DNA of 64,000 nucleotides from Candidatus Woesearchaeota archaeon. GTDB lineage: Archaea; Nanobdellota; Nanobdellia; Woesearchaeales; WAPY01. Of this stretch, positions 30,301-33,300 are shown piece after piece. Made by a program: the position numbers. Each line of letters begins with the position of its first letter. Position 1 is the stretch's first letter. The stretch is from the NCBI GenBank assembly GCA_049700835.1, contig JBNAUL010000002.1:222999-286998 (forward strand). Direction: 5' to 3'.

Positions 30301-33300
30301 ATCAGTGAAGAAATATATGAAAAGTATAAGGAAAAGGTAAGCAAAGATTACGAACAGAACAAGTTACTAGTAGAAAGTTTGATAAGCAACAATTCAAAAA
30401 AGCTTAGAAACACAATAGCAGGCTATGTTACAAGGCTAGCAAAGAAAGGAGAAATATAAAAAAATTAGAAAAGACAAAAAGAACAAGGAGGGTGGTTTAA
30501 ATGGCAGCAGACAACTCAATATTTGTCGGCAACAAACCGTTTATGAACTATGTAACAGCAGTTGTGATGCAATTCACAACAAAGAATGTGCCTGAAGTGA
30601 CAGTAAAGGCAAGAGGAAAGTTTATCAGCAGAGCTGTAGATGTCGCAGAGGTTGCAATGAAAAGGTTCTTGAACAACCAAGTGAAGGTGAAAGAGATAAA
30701 GATTGACTCAGAAGAGTTTGAGAACAAGGAAGGAAAACAGGTAAGGGTTTCAACAATCGATATAACCCTTTCAAAGAAATAAAATCAGATTTTGCATTTT
30801 TCTTTTTATTTATTTTTAATTTGATTTCTTAAATTTTATGAATAATTTTAAATACTTCTAATAATAAAATCATCTAATCAATTTTGCTAATTTTGGGCCT
30901 GTAGCATAATCAGGAAGTGCATCCGGCTTCGGACCGGACTATCAGGGTTCAAATCCCTGCAGGCCCGTAAAGGGACTGCAGACCAGGAATGACTAAAAGG
31001 AATGACGCTGCCTGCAGGCCCGTAAAGGGACTGCAGACCAGGAATGACTAAAAGGAATGACGCTGCCTGCAGGCCCGTAAGGAATTGGAGACTAATAATG
31101 AGTGAAATTTAAAATAATAAAAAATTAGAAAAATTAATATACCATTTATTTTAGTTTTTTTAAATAATAATATTTTATAGTACAATTAATTTATTACATA
31201 GGTATAGTTTATTTATGATTTATGGCGGTAGTGGCGTAATGGTTAGCGTGGAGGCCTGTGGAGCCTCAGGAGGGGGTTCGATTCCCCCCTACCGCCCTAA
31301 TAATTAAAATTGTATCTGCTCTTATTGTTGAAGAATGTTTTTTTGATAACAAGTTCTCCTTCCAATCTTATAGAATATTCGTGCTTAATTCCTATGTTTT
31401 GATCCTTGTCTGAGAAAACAAAATAGAGAATGTTTCTCTTTAAAGAGTATCCAAAACCGCTAACATTGGTTTCAAGCCCATTTTCTTCAAGCGCTTTGTT
31501 TGTTATTCTTGCAATTTCCTTTTCAAGCGTCAAGATTGTTTGCTTCAAAATCTTTGATATTATTACTTCAATATGCTCTGCTGAATTTCTATCATTGATC
31601 AAGCTCTCCAAGTTAAAATGAGGAATCTTGTTTTGAGTTATCATTTCATTGCTCTTTAATGAAATCTCTTCTTTTATTTCTTTTTTTTCATCAAGAAGTT
31701 TTTTATGATATTCAATGAATTTGTTTGGAATTGCCTGCATTCCTTTAACAACAGCATAATACTGAAAAGAATTATTTATTTGAGTTTTGATTATTGGAAC
31801 TCTTGAATTAAAATAAATTTCATTTGGTTTTTTAAAATTATATTCTATGCTCAAACCCTTGTTTTGATTAACTTCTTCCATGGAAGCAGTATTATTAAAC
31901 AATTATAAAAATTTTTTGAAATTCAAATCAAAAATCATTTCTTGCAATCTTATCAGCAATTCCATAGTAATCCTTTGGGTCTAATTTTAAAAAATCATCT
32001 TCTATGTTTTGTGGCAGATTGAGTTTTTTTATAATATTCCTAAATTCTTCAATGTTCATTTTCCTGCCTTGAACTTCTTGTCTAAGAATTTCATAAGCAT
32101 TCTCATAACCTAATGTTCTTAGTTTTGTTTGAACTGCTTCTGCTAAAATCTCTGCGTGCTCGTTAAGTTCAGAACTAATTTTTTCTTTGTCAACATCTAT
32201 TTTTTCCAAACCAAAAATTATTTTTTTATAAGCCAAGAGAGAATGCCCGTAAGCAACTCCATAGTTTCTCTTAACTGTTGAATCTGATAAATCCCTTTGA
32301 TATCTTGAAATAACAATTTTGTTGGAAAATAAATCGAACAATGCATTGGAAGTTTGAAGATTTCCTTCAGCATTTTCAAAATCAATTGGGTTTATTTTGT
32401 GAGGCATAACTGAAGAGCCAATCTCATTTTTGTTTTTTAGCATTAAATAATCAATCGAGATGTAATTCCAAATATTTTGTGAAAAATCAATTAGAATGGT
32501 GTTTATTCTAATAATGTTTTGAAACAATTCTGCTTGCCAATCATTAGGTTCTTTTTGAGTTGAGAAAGGATTAAACTTAAAATTAAACTTAATAACAAAT
32601 TCCTTTGCTAATTCAATCCAATTTAAATCAGGAATAGCGTAGTAAAAAGAATTAAAGTTTCCTGTGCTTCCTGAGAACTTAACAAAATATTCTTGATTTT
32701 CAAGCTTGATTTTTTGAGTTTTTAATCTTTCACAATAATTCCTAAATTCTTTGCCAAGGGTTGTTGGAGAAGCAACTTGGCCATGAGTTCTTGAAAGCAT
32801 AACTATGCTTGAATACATTTCTGCAAAATCATTAAGTTTTTCTATGATTAGTTCTAAGTTTTCTGATAAAATTTTATTTCCCTTTCTAAGCATGCTCGCA
32901 ATTGCCAAATTATCAACATCCTCAGAAGTTATTCCAAAATGAATAAAAGCATAAAGTTCATCAGGGTAATCTTTAATCTTTTCTTTTAAATTAATTCTCA
33001 AAGCAAGTTCTATTGCCTTAACATCGTGGTTTGTGGGTTTTATGTTCTTATAACCGTTTGTTTCAATCTGCTTAACAAGATTGTAATCAACATCTATTTC
33101 CTTAATTCTATCAATTAGTTCTTTTTTGCGATCGTCGTTTAAATTCAATGTTTTTATTATTTCTTTTTCCAACAGAAAAATCAGCCATTCCTTCTCATAA
33201 AAAATTCTCTCTTTAACATAATTACTTTCACTAAAAATAGTGTCAAGTTCTTTAACTAATTCATAATACCTGTCATCTAATGGAGAGAGCATTTTAAAAC

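Follow-up and report, generated by a model that had tools for sequence, protein, structure and literature searches.

IS200/IS605 elements use a short guide, located 5' of a hairpin, which pairs with the target as well as with the element's own right end. REP/BIME sequences are short, imperfect bacterial palindromes that lie in 3' intergenic positions, are co-transcribed with the upstream gene, and vary in number. Integron attC sites, which occur in arrays, are hairpins of 57–141 nt whose sequence and terminal structure vary and in which an imperfection is conserved. In haloarchaea, palindrome-associated transposable elements (PATEs) derived from IS200/IS605 include 'terminal-only' forms of 52 bp, as described in one report on these elements (PMC3119063).

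In this study, we analyzed a window of 64,000 nucleotides from a Candidatus Woesearchaeota archaeon (genome G000), in which short tandem units follow two tRNA-Arg genes. Because units of this kind also follow tRNA genes of further archaea and of bacteria, the repeat appears to be an undescribed and probably self-propagating element and not an ordinary repeat.

Anatomy of the two repeat arrays

An earlier note had placed arrays behind both tRNA-Arg(TCG) and tRNA-Arg(TCT), and ARAGORN, Rfam, Tandem Repeats Finder and the sequence itself bear this out (Table 1). Array 1 is detected by Tandem Repeats Finder at 30956–31080 with a period of 55, 2.3 copies, 100% matches and a score of 250. The unit length of 55 nt given earlier is correct for array 1, whereas the units of array 2 measure 54 nt. 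Each unit had been said to end in an exact copy of the last 11 nt of its tRNA; the copy is present, but its length is 12 nt, and for tRNA-Arg(TCG) it reads CCTGCAGGCCCG and recurs at the end of both full units. Similarly, an array had been reported up to 31117. The array does lie there, but its full units stop at 31077, and the stretch includes a degenerate partial unit (31078–31109), which is orthologous to the trailer immediately 3' of tRNA-Arg(TCG) in the relative G001 (locus L033).

Table 1. Positions of the tRNA genes, repeat units and flanking features in the window
Feature	Position	Strand	Description and source
tRNA-Arg(TCG)	30895..30967	+	Rfam tRNA model, 65.2 bits; ARAGORN bounds 30894-30968
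Array 1, unit 1 (55 nt)	30968..31022	+	TAAA linker, arm GGGACTGCAG, 29-30-nt middle with 2 x GGAATGAC, 12-nt tRNA-end copy
Array 1, unit 2	31023..31077	+	Identical to unit 1; sequence, Tandem Repeats Finder
Array 1, degenerate partial unit	31078..31109	+	Remnant TAA, arm-like GGAATTGGAG, decayed middle, lacks tRNA-end copy; sequence
First T-runs past array 1	31149..31165	+	Likely archaeal terminator, ~70 nt after last full unit
tRNA-Arg(TCT)	49534..49607	+	Last 12 nt CCTCCAGGTCCG; ARAGORN, sequence
Array 2, first unit	49608..49648	+	Linker TTA, arm GGAACTGGAG, middle; interrupted by assembly gap; sequence
Assembly gap within array 2	49649..49748	.	100 N; sequence
Array 2, unit tail and full unit	49749..49814	+	12-nt tail (49749-49760) and full 54-nt unit (49761-49814); sequence
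Array 2, degenerate partial unit	49815..49857	+	Near-full linker TAACAAGGTGAA, arm-like GGAACTGAAA, decayed middle, lacks tRNA-end copy; sequence

Apart from one change, an A where a C would pair, the arm of array 1 is reverse-complementary to the final 10 paired bases of tRNA-Arg(TCG). The single C-to-A change had been noted, but the arm had been taken for a copy of the 5' acceptor strand. It extends to 10 nt and exceeds a 7-nt copy of that strand, since the pairing partner of its bases 8–10 is the T-stem 3' strand. Compared with array 1, the arms of array 2 differ at two positions each, and these changes are complementary and fit each tRNA, while 29 of the 30 nt in the middle are identical. 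The stem varies with the tRNA, as had been stated, and the loop is kept but for one position.

The minihelix of each G000 unit, previously given as 10 bp, comprises nine Watson–Crick pairs and one A.G mismatch after the third base pair, and its end is identical to the 12 terminal nt of the tRNA. A single unit has a predicted folding energy of −17.5 kcal/mol (z −3.1), and none of 200 shuffled sequences folds as well. No terminal inverted repeats are found in the G000 units, and their middle contains no T arm or T loop. In the window, the Rfam tRNA and mascRNA models match the real tRNAs only. A known RNA family was rejected, since no model of Rfam 15 covers the units in the window (E up to 10) or at 14 related loci (E up to 1). 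C/D-box, hammerhead and BHB-intron readings were also rejected by eye, as the defining boxes or bulges are missing.

Such units are rare within the genome. Only two of the 29 tRNA genes of G000 are followed by copies of their own tail, and all four occurrences of the double GGAATGAC motif fall within the two arrays. The G000 linker variant is confined to the array when the genome is searched and rRNA is considered, and the partial unit at 49815–49857 is the sole structured linker-like motif beyond the arrays.

The distance from the tRNA to the first TTTT is 180 nt for tRNA-Arg(TCG) and 278 nt for tRNA-Arg(TCT), compared with at most 40 nt for 21 of 29 tRNAs, and no T4 run occurs within the G000 units. 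Since the units fall between the tRNA and the first T-run, co-transcription is expected. The next features after the arrays are tRNA-His and minus-strand housekeeping genes. Antitoxin repeats of a type III toxin–antitoxin system (ToxI-like), which lie directly upstream of a toxin gene, were rejected on this basis.

Related modules behind tRNA genes of archaea and bacteria

Pattern scans revealed the same layout behind tRNA genes of other DPANN archaea, Haloarcula, Nanohaloarchaea, Bacteroidota, CPR and Gammaproteobacteria. In this family, the tRNA end is followed by a linker, (T)GAACAAAGTGAA, a mirrored arm, a variable middle and a copy of the tRNA end; the linker is complete in the relatives and shortened to TAAA or TTA in the G000 arrays. 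The module lies directly behind the discriminator base of the tRNA gene. Its 10-nt arm complements the final 10 paired bases of the tRNA, in every case with a single imperfection that follows base pair two, three or four, and the tRNA-end copy is 11–19 nt long. The proposed tRNA-linked repeat class does exist, with arms that follow the adjoining tRNA.

A scan of genome contigs for the T-loop plus linker returned 66 loci; 13 of these carry an exact 10-nt tail copy, and inspection by eye added at least nine with one or two changes in the copy. By record title, these belong to Woesearchaeota, Aenigmatarchaeota, Haloarcula, Crocinitomicaceae/Bacteroidota and CPR. The reverse-linker scan gave 20 loci, four with a tail copy (Gammaproteobacteria, Haloferacaceae, Haloarcula and Nanohaloarchaea) and two with the hairpin only. 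In metagenomes, 44 loci were obtained, with an exact tail copy in 12, and the scan of viral contigs returned three chance matches, none with a tail copy. The 15-nt linker alone matches at least 121 loci, mostly by chance, with two real ones, and a 10-mer of the linker occurs in three carrier genomes at chance frequency, the array itself excepted. Within the order of G000, the strict linker pattern matches five of 401 genomes, namely true modules in two and chance coding-sequence matches in three. No long, gene-carrying version was found, and at two loci with the hairpin only, the contig contains no distal copy of the tRNA end. Literature searches for the linker in either orientation returned unrelated primers only, and no description of such units came from those on tRNA minihelices, tRNA-adjacent motifs and tRNA-linked repeats; a 2026 preprint on bacterial tRNA mimics deals, in the part available, with other RNAs.

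Copy number differs among the relatives of G000. As reported before, G001 has two units after tRNA-Arg(TCT) (47 and 63 nt), and G004 has at least three units of 66 nt after tRNA-Lys(CTT), two of them full and the third running off the contig end. Behind tRNA-Arg(TCG), no unit is present in a contig of run X3 and in G001, one is present in a contig of run X4, and two are present in G000; at this position, G004, G005 and four genomes from further families of the order are also free of units. Both G000 arrays have a genome-specific middle in common, whereas the G001 middles differ and its tRNA-Arg(TCG) is unit-free, which indicates that the G000 form reached the second tRNA after the split of G000 and G001. 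DNA contigs end at the repeat, and the breaks that the arrays cause in assemblies (this window and G004) call for caution in tRNA annotation and assembly.

In Haloarcula, a complete module follows tRNA-Arg(GCG) in 17 of 31 genomes. At least four genomes (G417, G419, G420 and G430) have empty sites with the T-run directly 3' of the tRNA, and occupied and empty sites differ by exactly one module with a 13-nt direct repeat. The linker of 24 of 25 Haloarcula modules is the reverse complement of the DPANN form. Between G063 and G408, which are 95% identical here, the loop plus inner stem is exactly inverted. Hairpins with the same loop elsewhere in Haloarcula lie behind housekeeping genes and not beside transposases.

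Integrase-borne elements usually leave duplicated tRNA 3' ends as their footprint, and the 12-nt copy ending each G000 unit is a direct repeat of this kind. The tRNA-Arg of Haloarcula is a real integration hot spot: G431 contains a classical integrated island of 14.7 kb with a 43-nt tRNA copy, and other species have longer, 23-nt T-arm copies at tRNA-Arg. The units might accordingly be decayed attL/attR remnants that were later amplified. We consider this very improbable and largely refuted already, since the archaeal copy is merely 11–14 nt, an inverted copy also lies inside each unit, the units are identical and only 46–66 nt long, and the linker recurs across phyla. In G000 (98.7% complete), the tyrosine integrase family PF00589 has no match, as the earlier note had found; the units measure 54–55 nt, their neighbors are housekeeping genes, and no element or integrase lies between or near the repeats. 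Moreover, the G431 island lies between the tRNA and an intact module and does not replace the module, which indicates that integrated islands and modules are distinct.

A possible DNA-level module weighed against RNA function and passive duplication

Across 20 orthologous Haloarcula modules, 92.4% of the cells of the helix between arm and copy are paired, and three pairs are changed on both sides, a result reached by none of 500 shuffles. The inner hairpin is 100% paired and shows compensatory changes. Although its position shifts, a single mismatch persists in all 20 modules. In contrast, no compensatory change is found in these modules in the alternative hairpin formed by the tRNA's own end and the linker. 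Similarly, where L258 and L259 differ in the arm, the downstream copy carries the compensating change and the end of the tRNA itself is unaltered.

This covariation supports the minihelix pairing proposed in the earlier note and argues for a functional RNA, the main rival, which we regard as possible but somewhat unlikely. Such a putative small hairpin RNA would be released from the pre-tRNA trailer and imitate the acceptor end, with a cut by RNase Z behind the discriminator-like base and a second cut, by RNase P or some other nuclease, 5' of the stem, and it may serve as a decoy, a competitor or an aid to processing or termination. The position of the units within the tRNA transcription unit, folding better than that of shuffles, the preserved mismatch and the retention of the module in Haloarcula are all consistent with it. 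However, the linker, which is the best conserved sequence, is found in either orientation with respect to the tRNA, and a single RNA function hardly accounts for this. The modules are also rare and patchy (two true carriers among the 401 genomes of the order by the strict pattern), sit behind differing tRNAs, and vary in number among close relatives. In several DPANN modules (L158, L163, L213, L215 and L219), a T4 run just before the tRNA-end copy could halt transcription, and the G000 units have no T arm and escape the tRNA and mascRNA models. In addition, template switching in a DNA palindrome can yield compensatory changes without RNA selection. The earlier note had read the arrays as RNA genes and not as integration scars; the scars do fit poorly, but, given rarity, patchiness, copies of 0, 1 or 2, empty sites and a linker in both orientations, an RNA gene is not established over a DNA-level insertion.

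Decayed linker-plus-arm remnants persist at both Arg loci in G000 and G001 alike, and they could seed duplication or conversion. The arrays may be passive by-products, neither mobile nor functional, in which an old trailer hairpin was duplicated by slippage or unequal crossing-over at short direct repeats and the arms were kept complementary by hairpin-templated repair. The identity of the tandem units, the lack of mobility genes in G000, and the loop inversion between two Haloarcula species, which shows that the hairpin forms in DNA, are compatible with this explanation. Nevertheless, it is improbable, as it accounts neither for a common 11–13-nt linker behind unrelated archaeal and bacterial tRNAs nor for the clean empty sites of Haloarcula. 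Furthermore, the arms were retargeted at two positions with the adjacent mismatch kept, whereas a repair tract would erase that mismatch.

We therefore tentatively favor, as the best reading, a selfish hairpin module that acts at the DNA level and is co-transcribed with the tRNA. The module would be a short non-coding hairpin that propagates itself by DNA-level insertion or duplication, and the mirrored arm may act as a guide that provides the match to the tRNA end. As the terminus of the module repeats the end bases of the tRNA, insertion would recreate its own target, which would explain head-to-tail stacking and quick changes in number. The mover would be an enzyme not encoded in G000. Because the module rides in the tRNA transcription unit, the pre-tRNA would have trailing hairpins whose 3' arm resembles the tRNA end. 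This reading is consistent with a rare, patchy family, with 0, 1 or 2 copies in close relatives, with clean empty sites, and with a linker found in both orientations; the 52-bp terminal-only PATEs of haloarchaea offer a reported precedent for very short mobile forms (PMC3119063).

Several observations speak against the DNA-level module. G000 encodes no integrase, no Y1 transposase, no TnpB (PF07282, no match) and no reverse transcriptase (PF00078, no match in G000, G001 and G004), and a long version that carries genes was not encountered. Terminal inverted repeats are missing from the units, and the same-loop hairpins of Haloarcula lie behind housekeeping genes and not next to transposases. 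The Haloarcula covariation and the mismatch in all 20 modules are explained at least as simply by selection on an RNA fold, and gene conversion between paralogous trailers could account for the transfer from Arg to Arg.

An extension that we view as doubtful would make the modules cross-domain, guide-bearing homing hairpins. The 10-nt arm would be a programmable guide that pairs with a tRNA gene or transcript at its 3' end, and the conserved 13-nt linker would be the handle of some enzyme of wide distribution. Once released, the units may mimic tRNA ends, perhaps with a CCA tail, and affect either tRNA end-processing or factors that attack acceptor ends.

If the favored DNA-level reading is true, tRNA 3' ends would have a second type of occupant beside integrase-borne islands, and the modules would form a new class of small elements, mobile or duplicative, whose arms match the target and whose layout and linker are common to archaea and bacteria. 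Such units would also offer natural acceptor-end mimics for probing RNase Z, RNase P and CCA-adding enzymes on minimal substrates in vivo. The question can be put to a direct test in Haloarcula, whose isolates include both carriers and non-carriers of the module.

Comparison with known systems

As at tyrosine integrase att sites, an intact tRNA gene is followed downstream by a direct repeat of its own 3' end. In contrast, no element or integrase lies between the repeats, the copy in G000 has 12 nt compared with 43 nt at the Haloarcula island, and an inverted copy and a linker are added.

With mascRNA-type RNAs (Rfam RF01684) and viral tRNA-like structures, the modules share an acceptor-like stem and a discriminator-like 3' end, whose base is identical to that of the tRNA, and they are likewise candidates for tRNA end-processing enzymes. 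However, in G000 units neither a T arm nor a T loop stacks on the acceptor-like stem and an elbow is missing, the mismatch follows the third base pair, and both processing and CCA addition are putative.

REP/BIME sequences resemble the modules as small palindromes of variable number that lie in a 3' position and are co-transcribed. REPs have conserved stems in many copies, whereas the stems of the modules are dictated by the tRNA and occupy two loci in G000. Integron attC sites are comparable in that variable hairpins with a conserved imperfection are arrayed; the modules differ in their tie to tRNA genes and have no R-box consensus, integron integrase or cassettes.

For IS200/IS605 elements and PATEs, the differences lie in the target and the enzyme. 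The target or 'guide' of the modules is 10–12 nt, always a tRNA end, and flanks both sides of the unit, whereas the target of these elements is 4–6 nt and is not duplicated. The modules conserve the linker or loop and not the hairpin stem, and they typically form tandem arrays. The search for an IS200/IS605 partner was negative: the Y1 (HUH) transposase family PF01797 has no match in G000 and three relatives (G001, G004 and G365), and TnpB (PF07282) has none in G000; the bacterial carrier G062 has one PF01797 match. On the other hand, G000 units have an imperfect hairpin near the end and no terminal inverted repeats. By their published description (PMC3119063), PATEs are likewise tiny, non-coding elements of tens of bases with an imperfect hairpin and no terminal inverted repeats; they insert next to a specific target, and an enzyme supplied in trans is needed for their mobility. 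By analogy, we propose that the mirrored arm of the module may follow the guide logic of IS200/IS605.

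Arrays behind the two tRNA-Arg genes

The genome that holds the window (G000; 1.07 Mb in 4 scaffolds, 32–33% G+C, 29 tRNA genes by ARAGORN) is archaeal by gene content, as Alba and ribosomal protein S17e are encoded just upstream. Copies of their own tails follow 2 of the 29 tRNA genes, those for Arg(TCG) and Arg(TCT). For Arg(TCG), Tandem Repeats Finder reports a period of 55 with 100% matches and a score of 250. Each unit is composed of TAAA, GGGACTGCAG, a 29–30-nt middle with two GGAATGAC motifs, and CCTGCAGGCCCG; its final 12 nt equal those of the tRNA, and its 10-nt arm is the reverse complement of the last 10 paired tRNA bases, with the single exception of an A for the pairing C. 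For Arg(TCT), the 54-nt units contain the arm GGAACTGGAG and the copy CCTCCAGGTCCG, and their middle shows 1 difference from that of the Arg(TCG) units. Both arrays close with a decayed partial unit without the tRNA-end copy, and the double GGAATGAC motif is found nowhere in the G000 genome outside them. The earlier note had described 55-nt units behind both genes, each with an exact 11-nt tail copy; the length holds for Arg(TCG) alone, and the copy is present in these units but spans 12 nt. Its account of a 5' arm with one C-to-A change, and of a stem that follows the tRNA while the middle stays, agrees with the units.

Features located in the window (coordinates count within the window)
Feature	Position	Strand	Remark
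tRNA-Arg(TCG)	30895-30967		
Unit 1 behind Arg(TCG)	30968-31022		55 nt
Unit 2 behind Arg(TCG)	31023-31077		55 nt, identical to unit 1
Secreted-looking protein, 1164 aa	33326-36820	minus	Right-handed beta-helix, NosD-like, MopE-type metal-binding repeats
tRNA-Arg(TCT)	49534-49607		
100 N	49649-49748		Assembly gap; interrupts the Arg(TCT) array and hides its true unit number

For G001, from the same genus, two units of 47 and 63 nt with middles unlike those of G000 follow Arg(TCT), one with the full linker TAACAAAGTGAA, and Arg(TCG) is followed by no unit, only by linker, decayed arm, and A/T-rich DNA. For G004, from the same family, 66-nt units behind tRNA-Lys(CTT) reach the contig end; these and the G001 pair had been reported before and are confirmed here. 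Nothing was found behind Arg(TCG) in G004, G005, and four genomes from other families. Additionally, contigs from two public DNA runs represent one relative without a unit, in which other sequence follows the tRNA, and one with a single unit. Because G001 has other middles and lacks a unit at Arg(TCG), the G000-type middle arrived at both Arg genes after the two genomes split, in both cases with locally fitted arms and the mismatch retained.

The G000 unit folds into 3 bp, a mismatch, and 6 bp (−17.5 kcal/mol, z −3.1). The end of the tRNA itself is an equally available partner for the arm, over the short linker (−14.5 kcal/mol, z −4.2). The first TTTT occurs 180 nt downstream of Arg(TCG) and 278 nt downstream of Arg(TCT), compared with at most 40 nt for 21 of the 29 G000 tRNAs. 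As each array comes after its tRNA but before the first T-run, it should be co-transcribed with that tRNA. Such co-transcription counts in favor of functional RNAs, the tRNA-like minihelices proposed in the earlier note as products of RNase P and RNase Z and candidates for CCA addition.

Distribution of the module in archaea and bacteria

A forward scan, in which a single genome stood for each prokaryotic species, looked for a T loop with the linker core 12–15 nt behind it and yielded 66 loci, 2 of which repeat loci already known from relatives of G000. An exact 10-nt tRNA-tail copy lies within 180 nt in 13 loci, and a copy with 1–2 changes, judged by eye, in at least 9 more. By record label, the archaeal carriers are Woesearchaeota, Aenigmatarchaeota, two MAGs labelled Methanosarcinales, and Haloarcula argentinensis; the bacterial carriers are Crocinitomicaceae and other Bacteroidota, with 87–105-nt units that are often tandem, and CPR groups. 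With the reverse-complement linker, 20 loci were obtained: a tail copy is present at 4 of them (a gammaproteobacterial MAG, a Haloferacaceae MAG, Haloarcula sebkhae, and a nanohaloarchaeon), and 2 have nothing beyond the hairpin, in which the linker joins the tRNA end to its mirrored arm. In metagenome contigs, 44 loci were detected, and at 12 of these the tail copy is exact. Commonly, the insertion point lies directly after the discriminator (+0–2 nt), the arm is irregular beyond the first 2–4 pairs, frequently with an unpaired A, the middle is variable and frequently hairpin-forming, and a T-run follows the final copy. The family is rare: of 401 genomes in the order to which G000 belongs, 5 matched the strict linker pattern, and only 2 of those matches were true modules. 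The units match no Rfam family, and our literature searches found no description of such modules.

The bacterial units (L164, L170–L172, L184, L218, L327, L328) are longer, at 87–160 nt, and share an inner motif of an inverted T loop and then GCCGGAG (GATTCGAA..GCCGGAG); the Crocinitomicaceae unit has a multi-hairpin fold. At DPANN loci L158, L163, L169, and L156, several module-bearing tRNA genes are long (93–124 nt, Rfam hits), which suggests introns.

Occurrence, orientation, and pairing of the Haloarcula modules

Among 31 Haloarcula genomes, 17 carry a complete module of ~65 nt behind tRNA-Arg(GCG), in the order linker TTCAYTnnRTTCA, arm CGACCGGACG, hairpin TCCACGC...GCGTGGA, copy CTCCGTCCGGACG, and T-run. 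In at least 4 genomes the T-run comes straight after the tRNA, and what separates a filled site from an empty one is precisely one module, with a 13-nt direct repeat. Of 25 module instances, 24 have a linker that reads as the reverse complement of the DPANN form. Moreover, between L232 (G063) and L233 (G408), 95% identical there, the loop together with 5 bp of inner stem is exactly inverted, and this flipping of the linker counts against a functional RNA.

For G431 (L246, L247, contig 13), a classical 14.7-kb island in tRNA-Arg(GCG) carries a 43-nt tRNA 3' copy at its far end, and an intact small module is positioned behind that copy. Modules are therefore distinct from integrase scars, as the earlier note had held for the arrays, and the reading of the arrays as such scars ranks last and is highly improbable. 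A search with PF00589 gave 0 hits in G000 (98.7% complete), in line with the lack of an integrase stated in the earlier note; no tyrosine recombinase of any kind was detected, a chromosome resolvase of the Xer type included. Similarly, no Y1 transposase was found in G000, G001, G004, and G365, no TnpB in G000, and no reverse transcriptase in G000, G001, and G004; a long gene-carrying version of the module was not found, including in viral contigs.

We compared two pairings on an alignment of 20 Haloarcula modules. When the arm is paired with the downstream copy and the inner hairpin is included, 92.4% of cells are paired, both sides have changed in 3 pairs, and 0 of 500 shuffles did as well, a count over related sequences that is not a probability; the inner hairpin is 100% paired. 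When the arm is instead paired with the end of the tRNA itself, the figure is 85%, with zero double changes and no excess over shuffles. The double-sided changes thus fall in the minihelix pairing previously claimed, with the caveat that palindromes may also be homogenised through template switching. At L258, the downstream copy has changed to match a change in the arm, but the tRNA end has not; at its sister L259, the arm alone has changed. Exactly one mismatch is kept in all 20 modules, at arm position 3 (n = 14) or 4 (n = 6). This covariation, the preserved mismatch, and long retention in Haloarcula favor a processed minihelix RNA, whereas the absence of a T arm and the T4 runs that several DPANN modules have immediately ahead of the copy speak against it; we rank it second, as possible but rather doubtful.

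A second, longer module type in Haloarcula (L232–L242, L252, L255–L257, L260) and a nanohaloarchaeon (L280) comprises an inverted T loop and T stem (GGAGATTTGAGCA-like), a spacer, and a 23-nt direct copy of T arm and acceptor end; in some cases it is found stacked with the short type. The 13-nt loop of the short module (TTCAYTnnRTTCA) is also seen on top of hairpins whose stems are unrelated to it and which lie in intergenic DNA downstream of housekeeping genes (gyrA, TrkA-type, and others) at L288–L291, L294, L296, L298, and L303–L308 (Haloarcula G418, G421, G426, G428). Across five Haloarcula genomes the loop motif has 35 matches versus 6 for a reversed control, with 4 inspected matches being coding false positives; orientation to the upstream gene is identical in 5 of 5 inspected hairpins. 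Outside the window, G000 contig C1 contains, near 490740 and close to a scaffold end, a T-rich/A-rich hairpin with a linker-like loop (GAACAGCGTGAA) and 8 of 10 stem positions paired.

Origin of the arrays

The patchy cross-domain distribution, the clean empty sites, the fast copy-number change, the spread to a second tRNA with refitted arms, and the retention of the linker in either orientation all count for a DNA-level insertion or duplication that would recreate its own target. Against a mobile reading counts that neither an enzyme nor an autonomous element was found. Having weighed the points for and against the DNA and RNA readings, we therefore place first, tentatively and at a little under even chances, a self-propagating hairpin module that would travel within the tRNA transcript. 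Passive local duplication ranks third and appears improbable. A self-propagating module and a processed minihelix RNA can both be partly true. As PMC3119063 presents them, the 52-bp terminal-only PATEs are a precedent that counts for the DNA-level module.
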